Below, one piece after another: positions 3,001 through 21,754 of a stretch of 32,000 nt of DNA. The notes below the pieces were generated by a model. That model searched no databases and was not told the DNA's origin. It saw only the letters and a list, made by a program, of their open reading frames with translations. Source of the DNA: Candidatus Peribacter riflensis. Lineage in GTDB: Bacteria; Patescibacteriota; Gracilibacteria; Peribacterales; Peribacteraceae. The stretch lies in NCBI GenBank assembly GCA_001430755.1, contig CP013062.1, positions 1,200,001-1,232,000 of the forward strand, written 5' to 3'. A program made the translations under genes and the position numbers. Numbering within the stretch: the first letter of the stretch is position 1; every line of letters starts with the position of its first letter.

Positions 3001-5144
3001 TTCTGGCCACGATCCCTGTCGGGGATTTCCCCGGAGCAATCGTTCTCTCTCCTGACGGTTCGAAGGCGTACGTGGCCAATGCCGGAGGGGGGTCCATCAC
3101 CGTCATCGACACGGCGACCAATACAGGTTGTCAGGCGGCCTCTTCTTCCTCTTCTTCCTCTGCTCTCTCATCGAAGGTACCTGCCTGCCCCGATGGCGTG
3201 CTGGATGCCGGAGAGACCTGCGAAATCGGCGTGTGTTGTGGTGCAGGCTACGTATGCGATCATGCATGCCGCTGTGTGCCCGCAGGCAGCTCCGCCTCTG
3301 CCTTCTTCGCGTCGTCCTCTTCTGCACTGATTCAGGCTTCCTCCTCCTCTGCCTTCTTCGCGTCGTCCTCTTCTGCACTGATTCAGGCTTCCTCCTCCGC
3401 TTTTCCAGCGTCGTTTTTCTCCACATCTGCCTCTTCGGCTGTTTCGGCGATGTGTGGCAATGGAAATCTGGAAGGTCTGGAACAGTGTGAAACCACTACC
3501 GCGTGTGCCAACGGGGCCATGTGCATGAATTGCTCGTGCGGAGCGGTCAGCTTCTGCGGAGATGATACGGTGGATTCCCTGCGGCAGGAGCAGTGCGAGC
3601 AGAATGCAGATTGCGCCGCCGGATACGTGTGTACGACCCAGTGTCTGTGCCAGCAGACGGGTGGCCTCTGCGGCGACGGCTCCCTTGAGGGATCCGAGGA
3701 GTGCGAGAGTGGATATTCCTGCACCGTTCCCGGTGAGATCTGCAGTAACTGTCTCTGTACGCCTCCTCCCCACTGCGGCAATCGCGTTCTGGAGTCACTG
3801 GAGGAATGCGAACTCTCTGATCCCTGTGTGGCAGATCAGGTGTGCGTGAACTGTATCTGCCGATCTCCGGCGGCGTGTGGCAATGCCGTTCTCGAGTCGG
3901 GCGAACAGTGCGAGGACGACACGCACTGCCTTACAGGGCAGAGATGTGACCGCAGCGCCTGCCGATGCGAGGGGACAGCGAGAGACTACTGCGGCGATGC
4001 CGTACTGAATCAGGGCGAAGAGTGCGAGGCGAATGCCCCCTGTACCGATGCAGGCAAGAACTGCGACTTGGATACCTGTCTCTGCGTCAGGCAGCCGGTG
4101 ATTCTGGCGTGTGGCGATGCCACACTCGATCCCGGCGAAGACTGTGATATTGGCATTGCGTGCCCTGCGGGAAGCTATTGTGTATTTCCGCGGTGCCACT
4201 GTGTCGGTGCCGTATCCCGTTGCGGAAACGGCAAGCTGGAGGGATCGGAGCGCTGCGAAATTGGAGCGGGGTGTCTACTGCCAGGCGAAGTGTGCGATCT
4301 TGCCACTTGCCAGTGTGCACCGTCTGATCCGGCGGGCAGATGCAGCAATGGCCTGCTCACCGCAGGAGAGGAATGTGAAGTGGGGGTGCCGTGCCCGTTC
4401 GGGTGGGCCTGTGATTTTCCACGTTGTGTATGCCAGAATCAACCGGTGTGTGGCAACAGCGTGCTCGACCCTGGTGAGCAGTGCGAGACGAATATGGCGT
4501 GCACGGGCGATCAGCAGACGTGCGACTTTTCGCGGTGCCGGTGCACAGGGCGCATCTACGAATGCGGTAACGGCGTGCGCGATCCCGGTGAAGAGTGTGA
4601 TGACGGCAACCGGAGTACCGGCGATGGCTGTTCAGCAGTCTGCCTGCGCGAAACCCTCTATTCACAGGTGCAGGCAGGCGCGTTCTGCGGCAACGGGATC
4701 GTCGAGAACCGTGAGGAGTGTGATGATGGCAATGTGTTCTCCGGCGACGGATGTACAGCATTCTGCACGTACGAGACACTTCCTGCTATCGATACCACGG
4801 AGCAACACCCCGCCGCCTCGGCAGAGTCTTCTCTCGCACGCTCCGCCCTCTCCTCGTCAATGATTTCTACGCCTGCACAGTTCACATCTTCAGTGGCTGC
4901 CGCCTCACAGTTCTGGTCGTCTTCGAGGCCTGCCCAGATCCCGTCTGCCCCGCTCGGAGCGATTACCATTCCCTTCCCCAAGCCTTTCAGTACTGTTGCA
5001 GTTTCTCAACTCGTCCGACCTTCACTCGTGCCCTTCATCCCTGCGCAGGCTCCCATGACGCGCACCGGCCCCGAGGTGGTGACCATCCTCTCTGCCGGGG
5101 CAGCCCTGGGGTGGGCATGGCTCCGGAGACGTCGGAAGGAATAG
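3..5144 (+). CDS. Giant secreted cysteine-rich modular surface protein (5'-partial): CGDG/EQCD Cys-rich repeats, Ig-like (CARDB/DUF11-like) segment, 8-blade YVTN-type beta-propeller, 12-repeat Cys-rich stalk, C-terminal membrane anchor
   Basis: Frame 3 is open from nt 3 (DCPVCGDGTREDPEQCDNGGNNGTACTPAY...), so the ORF-track Met at 222 is internal and the gene continues upstream. Stop is TAG at 5142-5144. The unit CG[DN]G-x5-EQCDNG..NG.AC.P....C.YC...C..VTLQG..CGDG recurs at nt 15-140, 487-640 and 1726-1860. An Ig-like segment lies at about 960-1360 (LAPQATKTIQVSAT). Propeller, stalk and anchor are listed as separate features. Confidence 0.9.
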   Translation, partial: DCPVCGDGTREDPEQCDNGGNNGTACTPAYSSSCTYCSSSCTNVTLQGPRCGDGTRNGSEQCDGSSTPCGSGKMCNSSCQCVATTQSCLSEGQNGVFPWASVTTPLSCCTGLNPTGNVSVIGPGQCGNLGSTFVCTYCGDGQCEWNENECNCSNDCVAQPFCGDGTRNGSEQCDNGAASNGTACTPAYGSTCTYCSSSCTNVTLQGLRCGDGSCTDGEHCGNCVADCVCQGGYFCAVDQCIPDNMIRCDIGDTCLNSATCCYDEVSHVNSCCPNVDSTCCGGNCCPTVGGMFRCENNQCIPVQSFSSSFSSFSSFSFIPPTKYGVTVTGIPAVAYPNRTYTVTISLTNKTSQQKNFALTPSNAVIPEPGAPPLVFNFASNLTYSCYGSNTDYITCGNYPLAPQATKTIQVSATTAANCVAGQTQGQGIFAIQVSDGTLQEPYVLQSVTEYCVAAGCGNGVWETGEGCEDGNTTSGDGCSATCVTECADTDGGNDPLVKGTATHWACFNSPGQPTCGLRPFAETDSCNGSLYTEWYCDAGTRRIKGDGDRQCPAGKTCVGGACVVGASPSSSVSAVCGNGAKEGTEQCDNGASNGQACTPSTGGSCSYCSASCTTVTLQGDSCGDGLVSSGEVCDTQGPPYPGCPAGDTCYQCTNCVRCGNGVIDPGEVCMVIPVCDMPYSCTSGPTFCPADCPASSAASSQSAAAAAVCAIPVGWNPYDIVITPDGAKVYVSVMGDDTVKVLSTASNSVMATISVGDAPAHIAMTPNGQRVYVLNQEGKSVSVIATATNTVIATIPINKTPKRLAITPDGAKVYVTAGNNSVSVISTTSNTVTATVTVGSSPLGIAITPDGTKAYVANEIVGSVSIISTVSDTVIASVSVGGTPQDVAITPNGTKAYVSNHNGNTIAVISTATDTVSASVSIQKFSSRVAITPDGTKVFALNDWEANLSVITTQSNGLSGTMDVGRGPTDIVFTADSTKAYVVNKADDTVSVIATATRNILATIPVGDFPGAIVLSPDGSKAYVANAGGGSITVIDTATNTGCQAASSSSSSSALSSKVPACPDGVLDAGETCEIGVCCGAGYVCDHACRCVPAGSSASAFFASSSSALIQASSSSAFFASSSSALIQASSSAFPASFFSTSASSAVSAMCGNGNLEGLEQCETTTACANGAMCMNCSCGAVSFCGDDTVDSLRQEQCEQNADCAAGYVCTTQCLCQQTGGLCGDGSLEGSEECESGYSCTVPGEICSNCLCTPPPHCGNRVLESLEECELSDPCVADQVCVNCICRSPAACGNAVLESGEQCEDDTHCLTGQRCDRSACRCEGTARDYCGDAVLNQGEECEANAPCTDAGKNCDLDTCLCVRQPVILACGDATLDPGEDCDIGIACPAGSYCVFPRCHCVGAVSRCGNGKLEGSERCEIGAGCLLPGEVCDLATCQCAPSDPAGRCSNGLLTAGEECEVGVPCPFGWACDFPRCVCQNQPVCGNSVLDPGEQCETNMACTGDQQTCDFSRCRCTGRIYECGNGVRDPGEECDDGNRSTGDGCSAVCLRETLYSQVQAGAFCGNGIVENREECDDGNVFSGDGCTAFCTYETLPAIDTTEQHPAASAESSLARSALSSSMISTPAQFTSSVAAASQFWSSSRPAQIPSAPLGAITIPFPKPFSTVAVSQLVRPSLVPFIPAQAPMTRTGPEVVTILSAGAALGWAWLRRRRKE
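2130..3125 (+). repeat. Eight tandem ~41-aa YVTN-family beta-propeller repeats (protein level) inside gene 1
   Basis: Eight units of the form [IV]xITPDG[AT]K[AV]YVxNxxxxxVSVIxTAT[ND]TVxAT[IV]xVGxxP, for example ITPDGAKVYVTAGNNSVSVISTTSNTVTATVTVGSSP. This matches the 40-residue YVTN repeat signature (TIGR02276) as I remember it. Confidence 0.85.
3297..3398 (+). repeat. Perfect 2 x 51-bp tandem repeat in a Ser-rich linker (SAFFASSSSALIQASSS x2)
   Basis: tctgccttcttcgcgtcgtcctcttctgcactgattcaggcttcctcctcc occurs at 3297-3347 and again, identical, at 3348-3398. Confidence 0.95.
3453..4775 (+). repeat. Array of 12 Cys-rich ~33-40-aa repeats (10 x CG[DN]xxL[ED]xGE[EQ]CE-x3-4-C-x5-7-C-x4-C-x-C, then 2 x CGNGxxxxxEECDDGNxxxGDGCxxxC Myxococcus-type/DUF4215-like)
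   Basis: Read directly from the translation. Examples are CGNAVLESGEQCEDDTHCLTGQRCDRSACRCEG and, at the end, CGNGVRDPGEECDDGNRSTGDGCSAVCLRE and CGNGIVENREECDDGNVFSGDGCTAFCTYE. The last two fit the TIGR02232 / Pfam DUF4215 consensus as I remember it. Confidence 0.85.
5055..5141 (+). other. C-terminal sorting-signal-like tail of gene 1: MTRTGP + 17 hydrophobic/small residues (EVVTILSAGAALGWAWL) + RRRRKE
   Basis: Tripartite layout at the extreme C-terminus. It is closely paralleled by the gene 7 tail (27974-28057). Confidence 0.7.
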
Positions 5145-5191: not shown

Positions 5192-8100
5192 TTAGAGCAG
5201 GAGGAAGGTCAGGATACCGATGGTGATGAAGCGGGTGCCCGGGAACGTTGCGGGAGCGTTCGGAATCGGGATGCCCTTCACGGCAAAGAGCTGGAGGTTC
5301 TGCACCCACTGTCCGAGGGTAAAGAAGGTGTTGCGGTACCTGCAAGTCAACTTGCACCGGGCGGAAGTGAGATCGCTGTTGAGCTCGCCGTCATCGCACG
5401 TTTCCCGCTCGCGTCCACCCGGGGGGGTCCTGTCCACGATGCCGTCACCGCAACGGGAGTACGTGCAATTCGTGCGGCAGAGGGCATTGGGCCTGTCATT
5501 GTTCGCCTCTCCGCCATCGCACTCTTCGCCCTCCTCGACCATGCCATTTCCGCAGCCGGCGCTGGCGCTGCTCTGCTGCGAGGAGGAACTGCTCTCTTCC
5601 GCGCTCGAGCTACTGCCTGTCTGCGGCAGGAGGCCGCAATTGGTGTACGGGGAGGGGGATTCGAAGCACTGCCCTACTCCGAAGAAGCTGCCTCCGATGA
5701 ACGGGTCTTCACAGCTCTCGCGGTCCAGATCATTGAAGCACAATCCGAAGTCCTCTCCTTCCACACAGCAATTGCCCTTCTCTTTTTCAGGCGCGGAGCT
5801 TGCACTCGCTGCGGCTGCTTCATGGGAGGAGGAACCACCTTCGTCTGCAGCACTGCTTTTCTGTCCGCCCCCGGCTGTACCGCCGCCTCCCACGCTGCTG
5901 ATCTCTGCTGCTTCCTGCGAGCTGGTTTCGGCTCCGGCGGAGGATGAGCCTTCTTCGATAGGACCGGTGAAGCATCCTGCAGCGAGACAGCGTTCTTTCC
6001 CTCCGACGATGCAGAAGACCTCCTGCGGTTCCTCATTGGCCAGCAAGTTGGCGGCGAGATCTAGGTCACCTTTCTCTTCGCAGGCGAAGAACGGCTGCCC
6101 GCCGAACAGGGCATCATTCTGCCGTCGCACACAGCAGGTGCGCTTGCCCTGCGGTTTTGTACCACAGGTATCTATTTCGCAGGCCGAGAGGCTCTCGCGG
6201 AAGCTGCCATTCATCTTCTGCTGACACTTGTCATACGTATTTGCCAGAGCGTCGCACAGATTCGCAGGTGAGACGGGATCTTGCGCGTAGCAGCAGATGC
6301 CAGTCTTTTCTTTGCACGAGATCCCCTCACAGGAGGTTCCCTCTTTCACCTCTCCATCACACTCTGCCGACAGCACGCAGGCGCCGCCGTTCTTGGGGCA
6401 GCAGGGCTTCGGTTTCTGTTCCGGCGTCGTGGGGTTGCAGGGATTGGAGGGAGCAGTGCTATCACTGGGGCAGGAGGCACCGGGCTTGAAATCGCCGTCC
6501 AGTAACTCTTCGCACATCTCGCGCGTCATTTCTTTGCCCCGAGAGGTGTCGAGGCAGAGTTCTCTGGTCGTGGCATCCGGTTTCTCTCGCGTGCAGCACG
6601 CGCCTTTCTTCTGCTGGTCGCAGAGAGTAGGAGAGCAGGCAGCCGCCGATTGTGGGGCGCCGCTCTTTGCCTCGCAGGCCTTGGTCGTGAGCATTTCACA
6701 GGTGGCACCGGGACTGCCCGGAACGCAACAAGGAGCCTGTTTTTCTGTTTGGACGGTGCAGACGATTCCTTCGCAGAAGTTCTTGTCGTTGATGGGCTTG
6801 TCTGGATCGCAGTTCTCCCGCTTCATCCCAACCGCGCACTGGCTGTTCGATATTTTGGGGCAGCAGGCCACAGGCTTCTCTTCGGGTGGACAGCCATCCG
6901 ACAGACACATGCCCTTCTTCATTTCTTTGCCCTCACCGCAACTGCCGCTCTTGGGTGCGTCGGCGCAGGAGGAGGTCTTCTTTTCAGCATCCCACGTGCA
7001 GCACGCGGGTTTGTCGGAGGGGCACTCACTGCAGGAGGCGGCGAGTCCTTTGTACTCTCCTTTGAATTGCTTGCACTCGGTCTCGGTCACAGTGAGACAC
7101 TGCAGGTTCTTTGCGGCCTCCGTGCCCGTACAGCAGATCCCCTTGGGGTCCAGGCAGGGGTTCTGGCCATTGACCAGATCACACGATGTCACGCCGCCCA
7201 CCCAGCGAACAGGGGCATAGCCCCTGTAGGCTGACTTACACTGCTCTTCTGTGATGCCCTGGGTGAAGAAGGGTGAAGTGCCTCCTTGGGCATCGCACCT
7301 CTGCCCCTGATAGGTGTAGCAGCAGATGCCCAGAGGACAGGCGGCGTTCGGGCCTTGTGATGAACATTCCTTCGCGTCGGGCCTGAAGGTGCCTTTCCCT
7401 TTTTCGCATGCCTGTTTGGAGAGGAGAGAGCACGTCCCCTCTGCGGAGCAGCAGGCACGATTACAGGAATCTTCCTTGCACTCCTTGGCGCTGAAGAGGA
7501 ACTCGCCGACGCCACACTGTTCTTTGGTGAGCTGGGAACACGTTTTTTCCTGTGCTGTGCAGCAGGGGCGACGGCAAAGAGAGCTCTTACACTCCTTTTC
7601 GTTCTCCATGTACTCGCCGCTCTGCGACGCGCAGGCGCTCTTTGAGAGGAGCTTGCATCCGTCGGCGGTGCAGCAGGCGCGCACGTTGTCACAGGGGTCG
7701 TCGAAGCAGAAGGATTGCTTCTTGAATGTGCCGCCGTAGCTCGCGCAGAGGGCCTGCGGCCGTTCGCTCTCGGCGGTCGTGAAATGATCGACGTTGAGAT
7801 CGACGCAGGGGGAGGGGTCATACTTCGTTTTGGGGTCGCAGCAGGCTCCCCAGTCGTCTACGGGCTTGCAGGGGAGGCTATCGCAGTTGCAGATCTGCTC
7901 GCATTCCTCCGTGAGCGTACCCGGCCGAAGGATGGCGGTGCCCGACATTTCCTGCTCTGCGCAGGTGACGGGGCCTCCGTAGGTACACATCCAGTTGTAT
8001 GTGTACTGTGGCGGAGAACCAACGCCAAACGGCGTCAGTACTTCACGGCAGCATGTCTTCTTCGGCGGGCAACAGCAGATGCCGCCGCCAGGCATATCTT

Positions 8101-11100
8101 TGGGGGAGTAGGAGCCACACTCACCTGCCGATTGAGCCGGGTAGCAGCCGAGCTCGCAGGTGACGTTGGAAGAAGAAGACGAGCTCTCGAATTGACAGGG
8201 ATCTGCGTCGCAGGAGGCAATGGCTGCGGGCAGGGGACGGCCGCCAGCCGCCTCACAACTCATGATTCCCTGCCGGTCGATGCAGGCGCGGCTCTCGTCG
8301 TAGCAGCAGGTGACGGGAGCGTTGCAGGGATCGGGCGAGCAGGATTTTCTATCCTGCATCACTCTTCCTCGGGGGGGCACCGGGCACTCATTCGTATTGG
8401 TGATGAGGCGGCAGGAGGGTCCGGCGGGGGCACCGGGCACAGGGCCGGGAATCTCACAGCAGACGAAGATCTCCTGCTCGCTGGAATTCTGGTTCGTGGC
8501 ACTCGAAGCTCCCTCGTCTGGGGCGCTCGAAGCATTCTGCAGGTCTGCGCCGCACGAGAATTCCTCGTCGAAACAACTGTCGCTTTCGTGGGGCGTGCCC
8601 CCGTTCTGGCGGCAGAGGCCCGAGGCGATCTCGAAGCAATCTCGGTTCGAAAAGCAGCAGGCGCTGCGAGCACCACAGGGGGTGTCGGCACAGGATTCGA
8701 AGTCGATCCCGTACTGGTAGAATTCTGCTCTGCATTTCTCTGTGTCCGATTGCTCGGTGCAGAGTGAGGTGGAAGGGTCACAGCAGGCTCCCTTCTCGAG
8801 GCAGGGGTTGTCGGGGGAGCATGTGGAGCCCACTCCCTTGAAGGTTCCCTGGCAGCTCTGCTGTGTTTCGTTCGCAGCACAGAGACTGCCCATGCAGCAG
8901 GCTCCTTTCAGGCAGGGGTTATGGGGGGAGCAGGTCGTTGCCGCACCCTGGAATGTTCCCTGGCAGGTCTCGGAGGTCTTGTCCGGAGCACAGCTGTTAC
9001 CCGAACAGCACGCTCCTGTGGGCAGACAGGGATTCTCAGGCGAGCACGCGCTTCCCGCCCCCTTGAATGTTCCCTGGCAGGTCTGCCCGGTTGCGAGCGT
9101 GCAGGCATCACCCGAACAGCATGCGCCTCTGGGCAGGCACGGATTGGTGGGGGAGCAGGTGGTTCCCGCTCCCTGGAAGGTGCCAGTACACGTGTCCAGC
9201 GTCTGGTTTGCGAGACAGCTTTCGCCGGAGCAGCACGCGCCCCTGGGCAGGCAGGGGTTTTGCGGTGAGCAGGTCGAGCCGACCCCCTTGAAGGTTCCCT
9301 GGCAGCTCCCTTGTGTTTGCAGATTGCACTGGTCGCCCGAGCAGCACGCGCCGCTCGGAGGCTGCTGACAGTCGGAGCAGGATCCATTGGGGATGTAGTC
9401 ACCGAAGAGCACCGTGCACCAGAAGTTGCTCATGCTTAAGGAACAGATGTCGCCGAGGTAATTGCAGCACACGCCCGTGCTGTGACAGACAGGATCGTCG
9501 CTGCAGTCAGTGTCATAGCAATCAGTCTGTCCGTCGTTATCATTGTCCTGGCTGTCCGCACAGGCGGTTTCGGGTTCGGGCGATTCCGACGAGGCCTCCG
9601 ACGACTGCGTTCCGCCGCAGCCCACGAGAAGGCATAGATCATTTCCGGCAAGAGGGGAGCCGGACCAGTCCACACAGTTGTCATAGTCGATATCATCAAA
9701 GCAGTTTCCCCCAAAACAACACGAAACCAGGAGTGGGGCGGCAGAACTTTGATTTCCACTTCCGCATCCCATATCCCCACATGTCTGATCCTCATAGAAG
9801 TATCCGCCTCCCGGCGTCCTATCACACGATGCTTGTGTGGTGTTGTTGCTGAGACAGCTGAAATCCACACCACTGCAGCAGGCTCCGCGCGGAGGGGGCT
9901 CTGCCGAGCTCGTCCCTCCGCTTGTGCACCCCACCTGCAGACAGTTCTGATCTTCAAAGAAGGACTCGCCACCCAGAGTGGCGTAACAATTCTCCTCTGT
10001 CGTGTTGTTCTGCAGGCATTGGGGTCCCGCTCCGCCACAGCAGGCTCCCCGTGGCGTCGGGCCGCCGGAGCTCGTCCCGGCGTTCTGGCAGCCCACATCC
10101 CCACACGTCTGATCTTCATAGAAGTAGCTGCCTCCCGGGATCAAATCGCATGAAGCCTGTGTTGTGTTGTTACTCAGGCAGCTGAAATCAAGGGCGCTGC
10201 AGCAGGCTCCCCGTGGCGTCGGGCCGCCGGAGCTCGTCCCGCCTGTCGTACACCTTGCATCCTCACATGTCTGATTCTCATAGAAGTATCCGCCTCCCGG
10301 CGTTGTATCGCATGATGTTTGCGTGGTGTTGTTGCTGAGACAGCTGAAGTCCACAGTGCTGCAGCAGGCTCCGCGGACTGTAGAAGACGACGTTTGGTTA
10401 TAGTCACAGAGATGACACTGACCTTCCATCTGCGTGTTCTCTGGTGTATCGCAGGAGCTCCATGGCATATCTTCACAGTCTCCTGCCTGCTGGCCGCAGC
10501 AGGCGATGAGATCGCATACTCCTCCTGCGCAGGGATTTTCTTCGGAGCTGCTCTGGGTCTCGCAGGGGTTGGGCTGAGAGCATGAGACTGCACCCTGCAT
10601 GGGTGAGCCGCCTATCCCACTGCAATTGTTTGTCAGATTGGTCATGTAGTACGTACAAACGGAGGGATCCGCACCTGTACCGCCGCAGCACGCGCCGAAA
10701 TCATCCGCCAGGTCTTCGCTGCTGGAAGATTGCGGGCAGTGAGCCTCTTGGCAGGTCTCGCCCCGATGGAAAGTGCCCTGGCAGCCGGAGACTGTTTGAT
10801 TGGAGTCGCAGGAGCCATTGACGTGGCAGCATGCTCCCCATGCAGCGCTGCTGGAGTTTCCGGCACAGGCCGCGGGGCAGAAGCCGCCCTCGATGAATTC
10901 GCCGCCCCACTGGTCTTCGCACTGCGACTGTACGGCTTGTGCACAGGATCTATTGGTGCTGCCCTCTTGTGGGCAGCAGGCGCCGAACACCGTATCGTAC
11001 GAGAGCGATGAACCGGCCTCCGAGGCGCGCGACGACGCTGCGGCACTGCTTTCCGCCGGACAGGCATAACAATCCTTATTGGCTTTGAACGAAGCTCCGG

Positions 11101-11446
11101 GATACCTGTCACACTCGCTCCGTGGCATTTCTCCCCAGCAGAACGAGCCTTCACAGCAGGCACCCTGCGTGCCGGTCACTGCACAACTTGTGCACGGCTG
11201 ATTGGGATTGAAGGTGCCCATGTATGCGTCACACTCCGTCTGGGTCATCGTCTCTCCCCAGCAGAATGATCCTGCACAACAGGCGCCGTACCCATGATCA
11301 GTGACCATCGTGCCTTGCAGATGCTCTCCGAAATGTGGGAGCAGCAGTGAGGCCGGAGGAGTGAGCACCTGCTCGGTCACCAGGCTCGTCACGACCAGCG
11401 TCAAGAAGGTTGCCAGTGCGAGCTCGGCGAAGCGCAGGCTGAACAT
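5192..11446 (-). CDS. Giant (2084 aa from ATG 11446) cysteine-rich 'GACC-repeat' surface protein with N-terminal signal-anchor, two Myxococcus-type Cys repeats and a C-terminal hydrophobic tail
   Basis: Single uninterrupted ORF with TAA stop at 5192-5194. The N-terminus MFSLRFAELALATFLTLVVTSLV is hydrophobic. About 36 units begin with [GRVIP][ASTIP]CC, for example RGACCSGESCLANQTLDTCTGTFQGAGTTCSPTNPCLP. A TSP3/MopE-like acidic motif ACADSQDNDNDGQTDCYDTDCSDDPVC is present. The C-terminus is ...CGNGMVEEGEECDGG...RCGDGIVD...ETCDDGELNS...IPIPNAPATFPGTRFITIGILTFLLL*. The ORF-track start at 11455 is a GTG that lies inside a conserved promoter-like box, so I prefer ATG 11446. Confidence 0.9.
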   Translation of the reverse strand: MFSLRFAELALATFLTLVVTSLVTEQVLTPPASLLLPHFGEHLQGTMVTDHGYGACCAGSFCWGETMTQTECDAYMGTFNPNQPCTSCAVTGTQGACCEGSFCWGEMPRSECDRYPGASFKANKDCYACPAESSAAASSRASEAGSSLSYDTVFGACCPQEGSTNRSCAQAVQSQCEDQWGGEFIEGGFCPAACAGNSSSAAWGACCHVNGSCDSNQTVSGCQGTFHRGETCQEAHCPQSSSSEDLADDFGACCGGTGADPSVCTYYMTNLTNNCSGIGGSPMQGAVSCSQPNPCETQSSSEENPCAGGVCDLIACCGQQAGDCEDMPWSSCDTPENTQMEGQCHLCDYNQTSSSTVRGACCSTVDFSCLSNNTTQTSCDTTPGGGYFYENQTCEDARCTTGGTSSGGPTPRGACCSALDFSCLSNNTTQASCDLIPGGSYFYEDQTCGDVGCQNAGTSSGGPTPRGACCGGAGPQCLQNNTTEENCYATLGGESFFEDQNCLQVGCTSGGTSSAEPPPRGACCSGVDFSCLSNNTTQASCDRTPGGGYFYEDQTCGDMGCGSGNQSSAAPLLVSCCFGGNCFDDIDYDNCVDWSGSPLAGNDLCLLVGCGGTQSSEASSESPEPETACADSQDNDNDGQTDCYDTDCSDDPVCHSTGVCCNYLGDICSLSMSNFWCTVLFGDYIPNGSCSDCQQPPSGACCSGDQCNLQTQGSCQGTFKGVGSTCSPQNPCLPRGACCSGESCLANQTLDTCTGTFQGAGTTCSPTNPCLPRGACCSGDACTLATGQTCQGTFKGAGSACSPENPCLPTGACCSGNSCAPDKTSETCQGTFQGAATTCSPHNPCLKGACCMGSLCAANETQQSCQGTFKGVGSTCSPDNPCLEKGACCDPSTSLCTEQSDTEKCRAEFYQYGIDFESCADTPCGARSACCFSNRDCFEIASGLCRQNGGTPHESDSCFDEEFSCGADLQNASSAPDEGASSATNQNSSEQEIFVCCEIPGPVPGAPAGPSCRLITNTNECPVPPRGRVMQDRKSCSPDPCNAPVTCCYDESRACIDRQGIMSCEAAGGRPLPAAIASCDADPCQFESSSSSSNVTCELGCYPAQSAGECGSYSPKDMPGGGICCCPPKKTCCREVLTPFGVGSPPQYTYNWMCTYGGPVTCAEQEMSGTAILRPGTLTEECEQICNCDSLPCKPVDDWGACCDPKTKYDPSPCVDLNVDHFTTAESERPQALCASYGGTFKKQSFCFDDPCDNVRACCTADGCKLLSKSACASQSGEYMENEKECKSSLCRRPCCTAQEKTCSQLTKEQCGVGEFLFSAKECKEDSCNRACCSAEGTCSLLSKQACEKGKGTFRPDAKECSSQGPNAACPLGICCYTYQGQRCDAQGGTSPFFTQGITEEQCKSAYRGYAPVRWVGGVTSCDLVNGQNPCLDPKGICCTGTEAAKNLQCLTVTETECKQFKGEYKGLAASCSECPSDKPACCTWDAEKKTSSCADAPKSGSCGEGKEMKKGMCLSDGCPPEEKPVACCPKISNSQCAVGMKRENCDPDKPINDKNFCEGIVCTVQTEKQAPCCVPGSPGATCEMLTTKACEAKSGAPQSAAACSPTLCDQQKKGACCTREKPDATTRELCLDTSRGKEMTREMCEELLDGDFKPGASCPSDSTAPSNPCNPTTPEQKPKPCCPKNGGACVLSAECDGEVKEGTSCEGISCKEKTGICCYAQDPVSPANLCDALANTYDKCQQKMNGSFRESLSACEIDTCGTKPQGKRTCCVRRQNDALFGGQPFFACEEKGDLDLAANLLANEEPQEVFCIVGGKERCLAAGCFTGPIEEGSSSAGAETSSQEAAEISSVGGGGTAGGGQKSSAADEGGSSSHEAAAASASSAPEKEKGNCCVEGEDFGLCFNDLDRESCEDPFIGGSFFGVGQCFESPSPYTNCGLLPQTGSSSSAEESSSSSQQSSASAGCGNGMVEEGEECDGGEANNDRPNALCRTNCTYSRCGDGIVDRTPPGGRERETCDDGELNSDLTSARCKLTCRYRNTFFTLGQWVQNLQLFAVKGIPIPNAPATFPGTRFITIGILTFLLL
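5195..5554 (-). other. Conserved C-terminal module of gene 2 (2 Cys repeats + RN.F..[LI]G[QE]WV..L.L[FY].V.G.P[IL]PNAP.T + terminal hydrophobic tail), paralogous to 11545-11907
   Basis: Gene 2 reads CGNGMVEEGEECDGGEANNDRPNALCRTNCTYSRCGDGIVDRTPPGGRERETCDDGELNSDLTSARCKLTCRYRNTFFTLGQWVQNLQLFAVKGIPIPNAPATFPGTRFITIGILTFLLL. Gene 3 reads CGDGVLQPALGEECDEGPRNSVAPNAICRPDCKTSRCGDGIVDNEPVIRSRETCDDGALNSEVETALCRTDCKSRNVFYIIGEWVGDLKLYSVNGTPLPNAPKTTIGSSLITIGVLVLFLF. Confidence 0.85.
8790..9365 (-). repeat. Five tandem ~38-aa GACC repeats (RGACCSGxxCxxxxxxxCQGTF[KQ]G[AV]G[ST]xCSPxNPCLP)
   Basis: Translation reads GACCSGDQCNLQTQGSCQGTFKGVGSTCSPQNPCLPRGACCSGESCLANQTLDTCTGTFQGAGTTCSPTNPCLPRGACCSGDACTLATGQTCQGTFKGAGSACSPENPCLPTGACCSGNSC... 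The DNA periodicity is about 114 nt. Confidence 0.9.
9750..10375 (-). repeat. Four tandem 54-55-aa GACC repeats (period 162 nt) with long identical DNA cores
   Basis: The protein unit is PRGACCS.[VL]DFSCLSNNTTQ.SCD..PGG.YFYE[DN]QTC.D..C..GGTSSGGPTPR, repeated four times. The core caggctccccgtggcgtcgggccgccggagctcgtccc is identical at 10041 and 10203, an offset of 162 nt. Confidence 0.9.
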
Positions 11447-11453
11447 TTGATGC

Positions 11454-11462
11454 ACTATACCA
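11454..11462 (-). promoter_or_regulatory. Extended -10 promoter element TGGTATAGT, 7 nt upstream of ATG 11446 (predicts a leaderless mRNA for gene 2)
   Basis: The minus strand reads AAATTTGGTATAGTGCATCAAATGTTCAGC. The block AAATTTGGTATAGTG is identical upstream of paralog gene 3. There is no Shine-Dalgarno sequence. Confidence 0.6.
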
Positions 11463-11541
11463 AATTTGCTGAGCAGAATCGCTTTCTGGTCCAGCGCAAT
11501 CGGGGTGAACGATTATTGGGGGATGGGGAAGGTGGTTCTTT

Positions 11542-14500
11542 TTAGAAGAGGAACAGGACCAGAACGCCGATGGTGATCAGTGAGGAGCCTATCGTGGTCT
11601 TTGGAGCGTTCGGGAGCGGCGTGCCATTCACAGAATAGAGCTTCAGATCCCCGACCCATTCCCCGATGATGTAGAACACATTGCGTGACTTGCAGTCGGT
11701 CCTGCAGAGAGCAGTCTCAACCTCACTGTTGAGTGCACCGTCATCACAGGTTTCTCTGGACCGGATGACAGGCTCGTTATCCACGATGCCATCCCCGCAA
11801 CGCGAGGTTTTGCAGTCTGGACGGCATATGGCATTGGGGGCGACGCTATTCCGCGGGCCTTCGTCACACTCTTCGCCAAGAGCAGGTTGCAGGACACCAT
11901 CGCCACAGATATTTGAAGAACTACTCTCCCCCGAAGAAGAGTGATTTGCAGAAGAACTGCCAACTGTTTCCGCCGACCCGCAATTGTAGCCGCTCCTCGG
12001 AGCCTGAATGCACGGATACTGTCCGAGGTAGATGCCTCCGATGTCAGTATTCTCGCAGACGCTTCGGGCGATCTGGGCAAAGCAAAAACCAAATATTTCA
12101 TCCTCAATGCAGCAATTTCCTGTCTCCATTGGAGCAGAAGAGGCGTCACCGGCAAGAGAGCTTGATTGATGCTGGATGCCGATACTGCTCGTCCCACCTT
12201 CACTGCTGCTTGCCGATTCTGAACTTGGACCGCCATCACTGCTGTTCACTCCTCTGGAACGGGAGGAGGCGGATGCACTCGTCACCGCGCAGAACGGATC
12301 ATGCACACAGTCGTCATCATCGCAATCCGTGTAGCCGTCGAGATCGTTATCCTCAGCATCGCTGCAATCTGTTTCCGCACCCGGTTGCGATGAGGCCGCG
12401 GAAGATGCCGTGCGGCAGGTCATAAAAGAGCAGAGATCGTTACCCGGCAGGGGGAGACCATCCCATTCCAGGCAGTCGTCGTACGCGATGTCATCGAAGC
12501 AGTCCTCAGAAAAACAGCATGAGACCAGAGAGGATGGCATACTGCTCTCACTGCCCGCCGGTTCCGAGCTCCGACTGCTGGGCGCACTGCTCATCGGTCC
12601 TGCGCTGGAGCTGGACCCGGGCGAAATCCTGCAGTCGGCGCAGGTTCCTCCAGAAACGAACCTGCCGAAGAGTACGCTGCACCAGAAGTGTCCGAAACTC
12701 GTGGAGCAGGTGCCGCCGATGAAATCGCAGCAGACGCCGGATGGTTCCAAGGAAGATTGTGAGCTCGAGCTCACAAGGGGAGAAGATGAAGACGAAGAAG
12801 ATGAGGGCAAGGAGGCAGATGAAGATTGTCTACCGCTGCAGGCTCTGGAGTGACAAAGATTGTTACCGGGCAGAGGAGAGCCGTCCCAGTCGATGCAATG
12901 ATCAAGAGAAATATTATCGAAGCAGTCTTCCCAGAAGCAGCAAGAAACCAACAGTGATGAAGAAGAGGATTGGGAGCCTGAACGGGAACTGGGACGGGAA
13001 CTGGAAGTGACAACACCTCCCGCACATCCCACCTCTGTGCAGGTCTGGCCAGCAAAGAAAAACGCACCTAACTGTATGACACTGCATAATGCCTGCGTTG
13101 TGCTGTTACTCAGGCACTGTAAGTTCACCGCACTGCAACAGGCACCCGTGGGGGCGCTGGAGCTGACTGCCGTGCATCGGGCATCCGCACATGTCTGTCC
13201 CGCGTAGAAGTACGCCCCGCCGGGCGAGAGATTGCACAGAGCCTCTGTCGTGCCATTCTGAAGACACAGAAAATCCACCGCACTGCAGCAGGCTCCCGTG
13301 GCGGGAAGGCTTGAGCTGCTTGCTGCCGTGGTAGGGCACTGGGCATCCGCACATGTCTGTCCCGCGTAGAAGTACGCCCCGCCGGGCGAGAGATTGCACA
13401 GAGCCTCTGTCGTGCTGTCGTTGAGACACAGGCGGTCTAAGTTTCTGCAACAGGCCCCTGTGGGACCGCTGGAGCTGGAGCTGGGAATGAGACTACTGGA
13501 ACTGCTCTGTCCGCCGGGGCACTGTGCCTGTGCACATGTCCGATTGGCGTAGAAGTACGCCCCTTCCGGATGGTCATACCAGCAATCGGCTTCAGTCGTT
13601 CTGTTGGCCAGACACAGTTTGCTTCCGTACCGGCAGCAGGCCCCCATGACGGGAGTGCTGGAGCTGGAGATGTTGTCCGGGCAACCAATGGCTGCACAGT
13701 TTTCGCCTTCGAAGTAGGTCACGCCTCTCAATACGTTGTAGCAGTAATCCTGCGTCGTATTGTTCGCGAGGCACAGGTAATCTCCCCCTCTGCAACAGGC
13801 TCCTCCGGTGGTGCATCCCTGTTGCGCGCAGGTTGTTCCTGCATAGAAATTGATGCCGTCAGGCGTCAGGTTGCAGAGTTCCTGCGTCGTGTTATCCAGC
13901 CGGCAGACACCTGACAGGGTGCAGCAGGCACCAATGGGAGCAGGGGAACCAGAGCTGCTTCCTCCGCCCGGGCACTGTGCCTGTGCACACGTCTGATTGG
14001 CATAGAAGTACGCTCCTTCCGGAAACGCATAAAAGCACCAGGCTTCGGATGTCCTGTTACTCAGGCACAGTTTGCTTCCGTACCGGCAGCAGGCGCCCAT
14101 GACAGCTGAGCTGGAAGAGTCCCCTTCGGGGCAGCCGATGGAGGCACAGGTTTCACCCTCGGCGTAGGTCACACCGTTCAGAACGTTGTAGCAGTGGTCC
14201 TGCGTCGTATTGTTCGCGAGGCACAGGTAATCTCCCCCTCTGCAACAGGCTCCTCCGGTGGTGCATCCCTGTTGCGCGCAGGTTGTTCCTGCATAGAAAT
14301 TGGTACCGTCCGGTGTCTGGTCACACAGTTCCTGCGTCGTGTTATCCAGCCGGCAGACACCTGACAGGGTGCAGCAGGCACCAATGGGACCCTCAGATGA
14401 TGAAGATGAAGGCTCGTCCGATGAAGACGATGATTCGTATTCACACTGGCTACACAAGCCCGGAGGCATGGTGTTCTCAGGCGTGCCGCAGGCGGAGAGC

Positions 14501-15534
14501 GGCATGTCTTCGCACATTGCCGGTGAATCTTCGCAGCATGCGACTATTCTGCTTGTGACGCAGGGGTTCGGAGTGCACGAGGTTTCGCCGACAAACGCAT
14601 CAGCCACCATCGCTCTGCACTGTCGTTGCAGATCGGACGTGAATAATGTGCACTCATCCCTGGGTTTACCTACTGCACGGCCACCGCAACACACGCCAGA
14701 ATCGGCAGGAGTGCTGTCCGCACTCGAATTTTGTGCCGTACAGCGTGCCTGTGGGCACGTCTGGCCCGCATGGAACACGCCACGCCCGCAGGTGTTCGGC
14801 GTTTCGTTGGCATCACAGTACCCGCTCGGATAGCAGCATGCACCCCGTGCCTCACTGCTCGCGCCGCCGCAGGCGCCGGGACAAAAGCCAGCGACGAACC
14901 GTCCGCCCCACTGACCCTCGCACTGCGTGCGAAGCGACTGTGCGCACGACTGGTTGGTACTGCCCGACTGCGGACAGCAGGCTCCGTACTCCAGATCCAT
15001 GGAGTATGAGGATCCCGCGCTGGAACCGATGGAGGATGATGCGCGGGAGGATGATGCGGGAGAAGAAGCGGCGAGCGAGGATGAGGAGGACGAGGACGAT
15101 GAGGAAGATGATGATGAGGAGGAGGACGGTCTGGACGGGTCGGAACCGTACGCGCAGTAGTAACAGGTGTGACCCTGTCGGAATGTGGCGCCGGGATACG
15201 CTCCGCACTGTGTTCGTGTCATCTGGCCCCAGCAGAATCCTTCCTGACAGCAGGCGCCCTGCGCGCTGGTGTCATTTCTGCAGGCCGTGCATTCCTGCCC
15301 GGGGTAGTAGGCGCCCGAGTAGCTCGTGCAGAGCGCACGTGAGATGAGTCCCCAGCAGAATGTCCCGGTGCAGCAGGCACCCCAGCTCGGGGTCACTTGA
15401 GCCTGTTGCCCAGGGGCATCGAAGCGCGGGAGCAACAGACTCGTCGGTGGGCGCACCTCCTCTATCGCAAGGCTCGTCACGACCAGCGTCAGGAAGGTTG
15501 CCAGTGCGAGCTCGGAGAAGCGAAGGCTGAACAT
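11542..15534 (-). CDS. Large (1330 aa from ATG 15534) cysteine-rich 'GACC-repeat' surface protein, shorter paralog of gene 2
   Basis: Single ORF with TAA stop at 11542-11544. The N-terminus MFSLRFSELALATFLTLVVTSLA is nearly identical to gene 2. It is collinear with gene 2 over the first ~350 aa and over the C-terminal module. About 19 CC-repeats, a 15-Ser run, and the acidic motif DCSDAEDNDLDGYTDCDDDDCVHDPFC are present. The ORF-track start at 15564 extends over the conserved promoter-like box. Confidence 0.9.
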   Translation of the reverse strand: MFSLRFSELALATFLTLVVTSLAIEEVRPPTSLLLPRFDAPGQQAQVTPSWGACCTGTFCWGLISRALCTSYSGAYYPGQECTACRNDTSAQGACCQEGFCWGQMTRTQCGAYPGATFRQGHTCYYCAYGSDPSRPSSSSSSSSSSSSSSSSSLAASSPASSSRASSSIGSSAGSSYSMDLEYGACCPQSGSTNQSCAQSLRTQCEGQWGGRFVAGFCPGACGGASSEARGACCYPSGYCDANETPNTCGRGVFHAGQTCPQARCTAQNSSADSTPADSGVCCGGRAVGKPRDECTLFTSDLQRQCRAMVADAFVGETSCTPNPCVTSRIVACCEDSPAMCEDMPLSACGTPENTMPPGLCSQCEYESSSSSDEPSSSSSEGPIGACCTLSGVCRLDNTTQELCDQTPDGTNFYAGTTCAQQGCTTGGACCRGGDYLCLANNTTQDHCYNVLNGVTYAEGETCASIGCPEGDSSSSAVMGACCRYGSKLCLSNRTSEAWCFYAFPEGAYFYANQTCAQAQCPGGGSSSGSPAPIGACCTLSGVCRLDNTTQELCNLTPDGINFYAGTTCAQQGCTTGGACCRGGDYLCLANNTTQDYCYNVLRGVTYFEGENCAAIGCPDNISSSSTPVMGACCRYGSKLCLANRTTEADCWYDHPEGAYFYANRTCAQAQCPGGQSSSSSLIPSSSSSGPTGACCRNLDRLCLNDSTTEALCNLSPGGAYFYAGQTCADAQCPTTAASSSSLPATGACCSAVDFLCLQNGTTEALCNLSPGGAYFYAGQTCADARCTAVSSSAPTGACCSAVNLQCLSNSTTQALCSVIQLGAFFFAGQTCTEVGCAGGVVTSSSRPSSRSGSQSSSSSLLVSCCFWEDCFDNISLDHCIDWDGSPLPGNNLCHSRACSGRQSSSASLPSSSSSSSSPLVSSSSQSSLEPSGVCCDFIGGTCSTSFGHFWCSVLFGRFVSGGTCADCRISPGSSSSAGPMSSAPSSRSSEPAGSESSMPSSLVSCCFSEDCFDDIAYDDCLEWDGLPLPGNDLCSFMTCRTASSAASSQPGAETDCSDAEDNDLDGYTDCDDDDCVHDPFCAVTSASASSRSRGVNSSDGGPSSESASSSEGGTSSIGIQHQSSSLAGDASSAPMETGNCCIEDEIFGFCFAQIARSVCENTDIGGIYLGQYPCIQAPRSGYNCGSAETVGSSSANHSSSGESSSSNICGDGVLQPALGEECDEGPRNSVAPNAICRPDCKTSRCGDGIVDNEPVIRSRETCDDGALNSEVETALCRTDCKSRNVFYIIGEWVGDLKLYSVNGTPLPNAPKTTIGSSLITIGVLVLFLF
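11545..11907 (-). other. Conserved C-terminal module of gene 3 (paralogous to 5195-5554)
   Basis: See the alignment given for 5195-5554. Confidence 0.85.
13486..14385 (-). repeat. In-frame tandem duplication of a 450-bp (150-aa, three-GACC-repeat) unit
   Basis: 13761-13940 and 14211-14390 are identical over long stretches (tgttcgcgaggcacaggtaatctccccctctgcaacaggctcctccggtggtgcatccctgttgcgcgcaggttgttcctgcatagaaatt...). The offset is exactly 450 nt. In the protein, IGACCTLSGVCRLDNTTQELC...AQAQCPGG occurs twice. Confidence 0.95.
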
Positions 15535-15541
15535 TTGGCTC

Positions 15542-15550
15542 ACTATACCA
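15542..15550 (-). promoter_or_regulatory. Extended -10 promoter element TGGTATAGT, 7 nt upstream of ATG 15534 (predicts a leaderless mRNA for gene 3)
   Basis: The minus strand reads AAATTTGGTATAGTGAGCCAAATGTTCAGC. Box and spacing are the same as for gene 2. Confidence 0.6.
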
Positions 15551-15605
15551 AATTTCATGCACAATCGTTTCCGCCTGGCGTGAAGATCTGCGGTACCATG
15601 TTTCC

Positions 15606-21100: not shown

Positions 21101-21749
21101 CTTGTCGTGTTCCGCGGGCCGGACATGCCAGAGCTGCCAGTGCACTCTCATTCCTGCATCATCCTCTTCATCGCGTCCCGCGGTCTGCGGCAATGGCCAA
21201 CTCGAGGGAGTGGAACAGTGTGAACAGGGAGTCCCCTGCGCACTTTCGGGAAGGCAGTGCAATTTCGGCACCTGCCAGTGTGTGCTTATCGTGCCATCCT
21301 CTTCCAGCTCCAGCGCGTCATCCGTTCCGGTTACGCCGGCGTCTTCCTCGCTGTCCGCTGCCTGCGGCAACGGTGTCCTGAATACGGGGGAACGGTGCGA
21401 TACGACGGGCAATCTCGGCTGCGCCGCAAGCGAGACGTGCCAGAGCTGCACGGCGTGCACCCGCTGCGGCAACTTCGTCCTCGAGGAGGGCGAAGGGTGC
21501 GAAGTCGGCATTGCGTGTTCCTCGAGTCTGGCCTGCAACATCGGCACCTGCCGGTGCGAGACGGTCTTTAGCGGGATACAGACGCAGGCGCCTACCTGCG
21601 GTGACTTCCGCATCCAGCCGGGGGAGGACTGCGAATACGGCATCACGACGCCACAGCCGCCCTGTACCGGCAACGCTGTCTGCAACGTGCAGACCTGTCG
21701 GTGCCCCGCCGGCACGGCGCGCCACCCCCGTAACGCCCGTCTTCAGTGA
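18102..21749 (+). CDS. Large (1215 aa) secreted protein: signal peptide/anchor, 7-blade RCC1-like propeller, DUF11/CARDB-like Ig segment, CxDSDGG module, Cys-poor unknown domain, C-terminal Cys-rich repeats; no C-terminal anchor
   Basis: The N-terminus MFRAFRTLFSAAFLKGGFGLVGIVALAWAL is hydrophobic. The Ig-like segment reads GGTIVYRVTATNNGSQPLSQIDVYV...LAAGQSVTVDVGF. The C-terminal repeats include CGNGQLDPGEQCGEPGLSCSAGRTCQSCQC and CGNGQLEGVEQCEQGVPC. Stop is TGA at 21747-21749. Confidence 0.88.
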   Translation: MFRAFRTLFSAAFLKGGFGLVGIVALAWALNQDVQSPGFLRAQTATSGALVCWGNDYGYAPPAGDWTDVTAGSAFACAIRAADGTVACWGDNPYGQTNAPAGRFQKIDAGTMHMCGIKEDGSVACWGTNSHGESNPPTGRFIDITASLSYSCGIKEDGTIVCWGENVKGQLNAPTGTFVQLTAEGNHGCALKADGTVMCWGENVSGSTTPPAGTFRLVEAGYAYTCGIKTDGTLQCWGHGGEGQTTAPAGAFSDVELGVNHACGLRQDGTIVCWGMSVGGQTNPPTGTFTDIGVGLYHGCAIRVSAGNSSSSVSVQSCPLGYTCSKITSFSCGSLQLPLCTLEYSGSCGTPSCQGVCFRCQSSSSSTPSASITGSVQLPSSVPRGGTIVYRVTATNNGSQPLSQIDVYVQSAAANTFDASLSDSRCVGGTNTQSVANCAIPTLAAGQSVTVDVGFRLGAALSCSAVINSTVSVRSTTPSTVWNSELLLTPVTCVSSSSSSSVQGSSCVDSDGGMNLDVAGTVTSTSCSGFPPTCITETHADECDDRPGYENDIVEYFCGGATTTDCANGKICRNGACVLSASSSSSAGQCIEGMQYWVPVTLTPAKDLRASWPGTGDASYVAYLKSTNEVYLSRLSLSGLSITKATDARISGGSSLVDVVALTPSDIFVVYDDSASQRCKAVLVRWSGGNAVIGTPVDVPASQYNPRCDTVLIARKLSEGRIALLWGLDQNYPTRLGATTATVDVAAGTIAFGPIPQELSYFVGTYQGSPFGDRGKQVEVVVRDANTIAIIGRAGGAIVSQPRWFANLFAWTTSRSGGVGAAGMWVRDCAINGSTFTCDDQSGGSVGATGYEVSGAKVGSNFVVAPTLIGSGPGVSVEGKTVSGWGGAQIPEWENSWTSFYTFVPLSNGQFMITAKTQNSTMAALGRITTSDIVWSAITSPPGSKVVIPAGAQDKFLFFYYPDSGQSNGQTAVTAGQYTADCPGCGNGQLDPGEQCGEPGLSCSAGRTCQSCQCTLIPASSSSSRPAVCGNGQLEGVEQCEQGVPCALSGRQCNFGTCQCVLIVPSSSSSSASSVPVTPASSSLSAACGNGVLNTGERCDTTGNLGCAASETCQSCTACTRCGNFVLEEGEGCEVGIACSSSLACNIGTCRCETVFSGIQTQAPTCGDFRIQPGEDCEYGITTPQPPCTGNAVCNVQTCRCPAGTARHPRNARLQ
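18243..19010 (+). repeat. Seven RCC1-like repeats (~38 aa; G.V.CWG.N..GQ...P.G.F..[IV].[AL]G..H.C[GA][IL]K.DG)
   Basis: There are seven CWG motifs: VCWGNDYG, ACWGDNPYGQ, ACWGTNSHGE, VCWGENVKGQ, MCWGENVSGS, QCWGHGGEGQ and VCWGMSVGGQ. Each is followed by P[AP][TA]G.F and a ...C[GA][IL]... strand. Confidence 0.8.
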
Positions 21750-21754
21750 TCCGC

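Follow-up and report, generated by a model that had tools for sequence, protein, structure and literature searches.

Two large cysteine-rich proteins of Candidatus Peribacter riflensis carry tandem arrays of a small six-cysteine module from a widespread, unnamed bacterial repeat family

In bacterial fibrillar adhesins, the stalk is assembled from tandem repeats, among them the G5-E repeats of SasG/Aap and the BIg extender repeats of RTX adhesins. These stalks offer a functional analogy for the products of two adjacent genes, here called gene 2 and gene 3, in a 32,000-nucleotide stretch (the window) of Candidatus Peribacter riflensis DNA (GenBank assembly GCA_001430755.1, contig CP013062.1, positions 1,200,001 to 1,232,000). 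The host is a groundwater bacterium of the phylum Peregrinibacteriota (Peregrinibacteria) within the Candidate Phyla Radiation (CPR). As in the adhesin stalks of SasG/Aap and RTX proteins, many small tandem modules lie between a putative anchor and a distal end, copy number appears to vary between strains, and segments predicted to be rigid and flexible are mixed. The repeat of genes 2 and 3, named the GACC unit after its opening residues, differs in that its fold is much smaller and presumably disulfide-dependent, and in that it comes with no recognised adhesive tip or anchor motif.

Two named repeat types are represented in the same proteins, both below threshold. The DUF4215 or Myxococcus cysteine-rich repeat (PF13948, TIGR02232) is a small acidic, cysteine-rich extracellular repeat of which each gene has two sub-threshold copies, recognisable by the pattern CG[ND]G...C[DE]DG; those at the C-terminus of gene 2 scored 23.5 bits with PF13948 (cutoff 27) and 16.9 bits with TIGR02232 (cutoff 20.8). 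Its four-cysteine layout, CG[ND]G...E-x-C-D-D-G...C...C, is unlike that of the six-cysteine GACC unit. The possibility that the GACC unit is a divergent DUF4215 was rejected: comparison with 33 CGNG repeats of the gene cluster by hhalign gave a probability of 0.4%, and the arrays had no Pfam match. The second type is NF033662, an acidic double-disulfide repeat with a thrombospondin type-3-like D-x-D-x-D-G signature. Each gene contains a single C-x-D-x-x-D-N-D-x-D-G-x-T-D-C-x-D-x-D-C element aligning with profile positions 3-32 of 32 at scores (Table 1) below the cutoff of 41; this element is unrelated to the GACC unit. On these matches, the acidic motif and the C-terminal repeats probably belong to the two named types.

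Both genes have been published before. Anantharaman et al. 2016 (PMC4736985, Table S4) list them as ORFs (open reading frames) 1090 and 1091 under the "cysteine-rich large extracellular proteins", together with ORF_1089 (lactonase), ORF_1094 (RCC1) and ORF_1095 (FG-GAP); all five are exact matches to genes of the window. That paper describes the cysteine-rich extracellular proteins of Peribacteria as including a 14-gene cluster, reports that several of the cluster proteins weakly resemble Myxococcus cysteine-rich repeats and pappalysin, predicts signal peptides and an extracellular location for most of the cysteine-rich proteins, and proposes that such proteins provide rigidity or attachment (PMC4736985). 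The repeat unit of ORFs 1090 and 1091 is undescribed there, and no function is assigned to them (PMC4736985). It was also the only relevant publication found in our literature search on cysteine-rich repeats (Peregrinibacteria, Planctomycetes, Phycisphaerae; GACC repeat, motif or domain; GC-type dockerin).

In the window, the gene 2 ORF occupies positions 5192-11455 and the gene 3 ORF positions 11542-15564, both on the (-) strand (2087 and 1340 codons). The published starts lie at 11446 and 15558, and judging from homology with gene 2, the second Met of gene 3, at 15534, may be its true start. The window DNA is 99.7-99.96% identical to CP013063.1 (GCA_001430805.1) and to Rifle-aquifer metagenome contigs, and an exact copy of the adjacent pseudouridine synthase protein, in the same gene order, is found on CP013063.1 and on several of the metagenome contigs.

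A preliminary description of this DNA, made without database searches, had proposed that the two genes consist almost entirely of a new cysteine unit starting with [GRV]-A-C-C, repeated about 36 times in gene 2 and 19 times in gene 3, and had suggested profile searches, structure prediction for two or three tandem units and a taxonomic survey as checks. The unit counts were borne out. Nearly every CC dipeptide opens one six-cysteine unit of the pattern x-x-C-C-x(4-10)-C-x(7-9)-C-x(10-14)-C-x(2-5)-C, and splitting the proteins at CC yielded 37 pieces for gene 2 and 19 for gene 3, almost all with exactly six cysteines. A loose form of the six-cysteine pattern matched 31 times in gene 2 and 19 times in gene 3, compared with means of 0.72 and 0.29 and maxima of 5 and 4 over 2000 shuffles; the tetrapeptide GACC occurred 17 and 13 times, versus ~0.2 in the shuffles. 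CC dipeptides as such (37 versus 26.9 ± 4.6 shuffled in gene 2; 19 versus 12.0 in gene 3) are only mildly above chance at such a cysteine content (238 of 2087 codons, 11.4%, and 127 of 1340 codons, 9.5%); it is the regular framework that carries the signal. Both genes also conform to the looser framework used for the family test, CC-x(3-14)-C-x(5-12)-C-x(7-16)-C-x(2-9)-C in tandem units.

Two parts of the proposal needed correction. The prefix reads exactly G-A in 17 units of gene 2 and 13 of the 19 units of gene 3, so that the proposed start applies to about half of the former and two-thirds of the latter; it fails in the gene-2-specific half, where the prefix is degenerate (x-[APTVI]-C-C). 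Units do form the bulk of both proteins, but "almost entirely" was an overstatement, as the pattern cores (from two residues before CC to the sixth cysteine) cover 56-57% of each protein and the remainder is made up of serine-rich linkers and end modules.

We found no named family for the unit, as the preliminary description had maintained. Unit arrays of each subtype (six sub-segments) and the whole proteins matched no family of Pfam-A (2025 copy) or NCBIfam (release 20) over the unit, the arrays being searched at E<=10, and canonical Planctomycetota repeat proteins similarly had no model from either library over their repeat. A profile of three tandem units retrieved nothing from the PDB sequences (best E 1.8). 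Foldseek comparison of the two models described below with PDB and BFVD gave no fold match (best E 4-7), and no solved small disulfide-rich fold (EGF, knottin, granulin and others) was matched by sequence or structure among PDB entries. When the unit alignment or the C-terminal module was used to look for homologues, all that came back were fragments, short or unnamed. None of these searches gave a significant match to a functionally described repeat family.

The module is nevertheless not new to databases, against what had been proposed: it belongs to a large uncurated family centred on Phycisphaerae and other Planctomycetota. A profile made from 50 three-unit windows (alignment A1) was run over 1.84 billion representative proteins; 7,416 of them matched at E<=1e-3, 4,124 at E<=1e-10 and 1,215 at E<=1e-30, and a single protein had as many as 23 matched three-unit stretches. 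Planctomycetota was the taxon of the one named entry among the ten top hits. The canonical family repeat reads G-A-C-C-x-x-D-G-x-C-...-G-G-x-Y-x-G-D-G-T-x-C-x-P-N-P-C-P, and one protein of this kind is annotated from Phycisphaerales. All six cysteines are retained in 2553 of the 2739 family units; informative variants were too few to read the disulfide pairing from natural patterns of cysteine loss.

The taxonomic survey was carried out at the DNA level. GTDB species genomes were scanned for three (G)ACC starts in a row at unit spacing, giving at least 120 loci, each of which was re-translated; since the DNA pattern favours GC-rich codons, the resulting taxonomic picture is biased. Among the matches listed, genuine loci came mostly from Phycisphaerae, Phycisphaerales and other Planctomycetota (a Phycisphaera mikurensis metagenome-assembled genome (MAG), Isosphaeraceae, Planctomycetaceae), and also from Candidatus Eisenbacteria, Myxococcota/Myxococcales and one Zixibacteria genome, while loci re-translating to zero units (Streptomyces, Aeromonas, Mycobacterium, Nostoc and others) were chance DNA matches. 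The unit is therefore widespread, mainly in Planctomycetota. The densest array observed lies in a Planctomycetota MAG (locus L120, JBCCFX010000049.1), with 46 consecutive GACC units in a single frame over 8 kb.

The Peribacter units matched significantly a profile built only from units of other phyla. With the GACC proteins of Planctomycetota (Phycisphaerae; MCP3906007.1, P0005, P0006, P0008, P0009, P0012) they share the six-cysteine framework, the G-A-C-C start, the G-G-x-aromatic-x-G core and the arrangement in tandem arrays of ~37-42-amino-acid (aa) units, with a significant hidden Markov model (HMM) match. They are more divergent than the Planctomycetota units, about one third being individually significant, and include subtypes with long loops, serine-rich linkers and N-x-T sequons. 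The proteins also differ in their ends and host: those of Peribacter have N- and C-terminal modules of their own and belong to a CPR bacterium, whereas those of Planctomycetota terminate in type IX secretion system (T9SS), dockerin or PEP-CTERM-type sequences.

We next turned to AlphaFold2 (AF2) models of tandem units. Three contiguous A-type units (gene 2 aa 702-810, alignment A1) were modelled with a mean predicted local distance difference test (pLDDT) of 95.8 and a predicted template modelling score (pTM) of 0.70; each unit forms a hairpin over A-C-C-S / x-C-x-L followed by a short strand at G-T-F-x-G. For two B-type units with their linker (gene 2 aa 362-456, alignment A2), the mean pLDDT was 85.2 (units ~89) and the pTM 0.45, each unit consisting of a hairpin, a short helix and a third strand, with linker residues 45-50 below a pLDDT of 50. 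The same order of hairpin, helix or turn, and strand in both models makes the two subtypes versions of one compact mini-domain, predicted to comprise ~35-45 aa: a beta-hairpin that carries the CC pair comes first, followed by a short helix or turn and then by a third strand at G-x-aromatic-x-G. The six near-invariant cysteines presumably form three disulfides per unit. Since abutting units have a defined mutual orientation in the models and linker-separated units do not, the models suggest that contiguous units form a rod and linker-separated ones beads on a string. Both alignments contain family members, so the models describe the family fold and are not an independent test of it.

BLASTP confirmed that genes 2 and 3 are a same-strand tandem paralogous pair, collinear at both ends. 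The N-terminal block (gene 2 aa 1-584, gene 3 aa 8-648) is 41% identical, the block with the acidic motif (aa 566-660 and 1003-1095) 53%, and the C-terminal block (aa 1882-2087 and 1138-1340) 48%. The parts follow in a common order: N-terminal hydrophobic segment, six idiosyncratic units, B-type array, VSCC and GVCC units, acidic motif and C-terminal module. Gene 2 alone has, between the last two, five A-type units and ~22 divergent Lys/Glu-rich units. The acidic motif had been placed within the last ~250 aa of both proteins; this does not hold for gene 2, where ~1230 gene-2-specific residues downstream of the motif put it mid-protein. The A-type units of gene 2 are the nearest of the units to the Planctomycetota consensus. 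At the DNA level, Tandem Repeats Finder reported periods of 111 nt for A-type units, 162 nt for B-type units and 450 nt for a three-unit super-repeat of gene 3 (85% matches). Coordinates are collected in Table 1.

Table 1. Genes 2 and 3 and their parts, in window positions
Feature	Position	Strand	Remarks
Gene 2	5192..11446	(-)	Published ORF RIFOXYC2_FULL_PER-ii_58_32_1090; 2084 aa, 238 Cys (11.4%), ~36 six-Cys units
Gene 2 N-terminal hydrophobic segment, MFSLRFAELALATFLTLVVTSLV	11366..11446	(-)	Only Kyte-Doolittle >1.6 region of gene 2
Gene 2 units 1-6, aa 57-361	10373..11287	(-)	Collinear with gene 3 aa 62-394; candidate distal "tip"
Gene 2 four B-type units, aa 362-576	9728..10372	(-)	~54 aa, each followed by a Gly/Ser/Pro linker; DNA period 162 x 3.8
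Gene 2 acidic motif, CADSQDNDNDGQTDCYDTDCSDDPVC, aa 632-657	9485..9562	(-)	NF033662, 31.3 bits (gene 2 segment)
Gene 2 five contiguous A-type units, aa 702-888	8792..9352	(-)	37-38 aa, inter-unit gap 3-4 residues; DNA period 111
Gene-2-specific block, aa 889-1893	5777..8791	(-)	~22 divergent Lys/Glu-rich six-Cys units; no gene 3 counterpart
Gene 2 C-terminal module, aa 1894-2087	5195..5776	(-)	GNCC unit, Ser-rich linker, two CG[ND]G (DUF4215-like) repeats, conserved tail, short hydrophobic C-terminus
Gene 3	11542..15558	(-)	Published ORF ..._1091; 1338 aa, 126 Cys (9.4%), 19 six-Cys units
Gene 3 units 1-6, aa 62-394	14383..15381	(-)	Poly-Ser linker included
Gene 3 nine B-type units, aa 395-872	12949..14382	(-)	Contains 450-nt (3-unit) tandem super-repeat at 13510-14389
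Gene 3 acidic motif, CSDAEDNDLDGYTDCDDDDCVHDPFC, aa 1067-1092	12289..12366	(-)	Sequence pattern; NF033662, 25.7 bits (whole protein)
Gene 3 C-terminal module, aa 1149-1340	11545..12120	(-)	48% identical to gene 2 module

The number of units differs between contigs. Contig L128 encodes the identical 2084-aa gene 2 product together with a gene 3 that lacks exactly aa 391-540 (150 aa, one 450-nt three-unit block) and is otherwise identical. A protein 96% identical to gene 2 (P0001) is missing one of the five A-type units. In a related Peribacteria genome (L130; JGI 3300029288, contig Ga0265297_10000557), the order beta-CASP / pseudouridine synthase / GACC gene / convergent lactonase-type gene is the same as in the window, with one GACC gene instead of two; its 1518-aa product, P0003, mixes features of genes 2 and 3. 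A single GACC gene in this syntenic position indicates that the tandem pair is lineage-specific. The earlier idea of a length-variable rod fits the AF2 models, the tandem DNA repeats and the contig without one three-unit block.

N-x-S/T sequons are about twofold enriched in both proteins (gene 3, 25 versus 11.1 ± 2.9 in shuffles; gene 2, 25 versus 14.8 ± 3.4); since the units duplicate each other, these counts lack independence. They occupy fixed positions in the B-type units, C-L-S-N-N-T-T-Q and Y-x-N-Q-T-C (window 9728-10372 and 12949-14382), and NNTT and NQT sequons are conserved in the B-type units of gene 2. Many glycosyltransferases are encoded in the Peribacter genome (PMC4736985), and the sequons, the long poly-Ser linkers and these enzymes together hint at heavy glycosylation.

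At the termini, strong hydrophobicity (Kyte-Doolittle >1.6) was seen at the N-terminus of both genes and at the extreme C-terminus of gene 3 only. The N-terminal segment of gene 2, which is conserved in gene 3, P0003 and P0004 (a Peregrinibacteria MAG protein), is probably a signal peptide or signal anchor. Its motif F-[AST]-E-L-A-L-[AG]-T-F-L-T-L-V (11366-11446; 15454-15534) is conserved far above the level of a generic signal peptide and recurs in P0003 and P0004. The segment resembles a prepilin N-terminus yet matches no prepilin model. A type IV pilin-like N-terminus was rejected: the sequence reads ...LR followed by FAELALATFLTLV, with R or A at -1 and Glu at +3, compared with the class III signal criteria of G at -1, F at +1 and E at +5, and no prepilin model of NCBIfam or Pfam matched at E<=10. 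The C-terminal sorting signals LPXTG, PEP-CTERM, MYXO-CTERM and T9SS CTD (C-terminal domain) were also discarded, as the tail of neither gene gave a match at E<=10.

Taken with the family comparison, this anatomy leads us to favour, with moderate confidence, a reading of genes 2 and 3 as exported, envelope-attached fibrils. The bulk of each protein would be a stalk of small, independently folding, disulfide-stabilised GACC modules, exported under the direction of the conserved N-terminal hydrophobic segment. Directly abutting units would give stiff rod segments and units with Ser/Gly-rich linkers flexible beads-on-a-string segments, the two alternating along the fibril. The C-terminal module, with one GNCC unit, two DUF4215-like repeats and a hydrophobic tail, is the likely attachment end, and the collinear six N-terminal units would lie at the distal end, where they might contact a ligand. 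Length and surface would change, and so be tuned, as units are duplicated in tandem or deleted and as the whole gene is duplicated. In Planctomycetota, the same module would serve as a spacer that separates anchoring domains from domains for catalysis or binding.

Several observations weigh against this reading. Only 11 of the ~36 units of gene 2 and 7 of the 19 of gene 3 reached a domain independent E-value (iE) below 1e-3 with the general unit HMM, whose training sample may have included a few Peribacter units; the remaining units were placed by the cysteine framework alone. Compared with a fibrillar adhesin, a stalk is present, an anchor is suggested by the hydrophobic termini only, and no adhesive or ligand-binding domain was recognised in genes 2 and 3 by the Pfam-A and NCBIfam scans, so that the word adhesin would be a guess. 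No known sorting, lipoprotein or prepilin signal was matched at either terminus, and the C-terminal tail of gene 2 is below the hydrophobicity threshold, so that the anchoring end is a putative one. The differences in unit number on L128 and in P0001 could be due to short-read assembly collapse of an 85-88% identical repeat. Finally, the host lives in low-oxygen groundwater with minimal known disulfide-forming machinery.

The domain context in other phyla bears both on the fibril reading and on a rival to it. Domains found alongside the units there are Peptidase_S8 (subtilase), PPC, Laminin_G_3, CARDB, PEGA, T9SS C-terminal domains, metallophosphoesterase, LTD (lamin-tail), TSP_3 and GC-type dockerin, and the units sit between secreted enzymes or lectin-like domains and anchoring domains. 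So varied a set of extracellular partners and the low conservation beyond the Cys/Gly framework (mean column identity 32-34%) are what would be expected of a structural spacer or stalk module. The units might instead be multivalent binding elements for carbohydrate or mineral, akin to carbohydrate-binding modules (CBMs), and the proteins polyvalent adhesins along their whole length. A glycine/aromatic motif, G-G-x-[YFW]-x-G, is indeed conserved in every unit, the units are elsewhere appended to secreted enzymes (subtilases, metallophosphoesterase) in the fashion of CBMs, and copy numbers are very high, up to the 46 units of L120. We consider this rather unlikely: a single aromatic residue in a ~38-aa three-disulfide module is equally likely to serve core packing, the variability of adjacent units outside Cys/Gly is typical of spacers and not of binding sites, and Pfam offers no similarity to a CBM or lectin family.

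An improbable alternative is that the proteins are components of a lattice or envelope scaffold, such as a surface (S)-layer-like or "picket-fence" coat, in place of individual attachment fibrils. It would suit the position of the genes among other large cysteine-rich surface proteins (beta-propeller, RCC1, FG-GAP) that share DUF4215-like repeats, and the heavy investment of Peribacteria in envelope components stressed in the 2016 paper (PMC4736985). No SLH or S-layer family similarity emerged from Pfam-A or NCBIfam, however, and rapid variation in unit number and sequence better suits exposed, variable fibrils; a scaffold role is moreover compatible with the fibril reading and the two are not mutually exclusive. 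Very improbable is a role of the cysteines as free thiols, that is as metal ligands or a redox-active surface (metal sequestration, contact with Fe-S minerals, oxidant buffering), which the low-oxygen habitat, the single disulfide-formation protein annotated in the genome (PMC4736985) and the extreme cysteine content with vicinal CC pairs would allow, but which runs counter to the even, strictly conserved set of six cysteines (2553 of 2739 units), the confidently predicted compact beta fold, the abundance of the module in secreted proteins of many other phyla and the absence of conserved His/Asp partners and of CxxC or CxxCH motifs.

The neighbouring genes have features of their own. We counted 33 DUF4215-like repeats (CG[DN]G...E-x-C-[DE]) across the cluster proteins (222-5144, 18102-21749, 21746-28060, and an ORF from ~28060 to the right end), including the two in each of genes 2 and 3; this repeat is the element common to the whole cluster, and only genes 2 and 3 have GACC units. 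The lactonase-type protein has 6 CC dipeptides and the RCC1 and FG-GAP proteins have 0, versus 37 and 19 in genes 2 and 3. The lactonase-type (222-5144, +) and FG-GAP (21746-28060, +) proteins end in x-T-G-P, ~17 hydrophobic residues and RRRR(K/R); the lactonase-type tail scored 18.1 bits with TIGR03382 (GC_trans_RRR / MYXO-CTERM), above the cutoff of 15.85, and 14.1 bits with PEP-CTERM (cutoff 16). A myxobacterial-type sorting signal beside Myxococcus-type cysteine repeats is unexpected in a CPR genome, and genes 2 and 3 have no TIGR03382 signal. The RCC1-type gene (18102-21749) and the longest FG-GAP ORF (GTG at 21746) share 4 nt, 21746-21749; some public calls start the FG-GAP gene 9 nt downstream, giving 2101 instead of 2104 aa.

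The genes have been known since 2016, and a tandem stalk of small modules is a well-known feature of bacterial surface proteins; the GACC module reveals no new biological mechanism. The module itself is undescribed within Pfam-A 2025, NCBIfam 20, the PDB and the literature searched, and its occurrence in a CPR bacterium is far from its Planctomycetota stronghold. A bolder account, possible but doubtful in our view, would make the GACC unit a structurally new three-disulfide mini-domain fold, among the larger unnamed bacterial extracellular repeat families (>7,000 clusters at 50% identity), that a CPR symbiont acquired from Planctomycetota-like donors and re-used as a glycosylated fibril of rapidly varying length for attachment to the host. 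As a compact, stackable rigid spacer, the module could also be of use in protein engineering.

For Peribacteria, the module lets the "intriguing" cysteine-rich proteins behind much of the unusual cysteine content of these genomes be read in concrete structural terms, and it raises the question of how a minimal CPR cell in low-oxygen groundwater oxidises >100 disulfides per protein. For the family at large, the GACC module merits a domain-family entry and a structure, and the present alignments could be used directly to build a Pfam or NCBIfam model. Once the family had a name, large regions that are now unexplained would be annotated in thousands of surface and secreted proteins of Planctomycetota, Eisenbacteria, Myxococcota and Peregrinibacteria.

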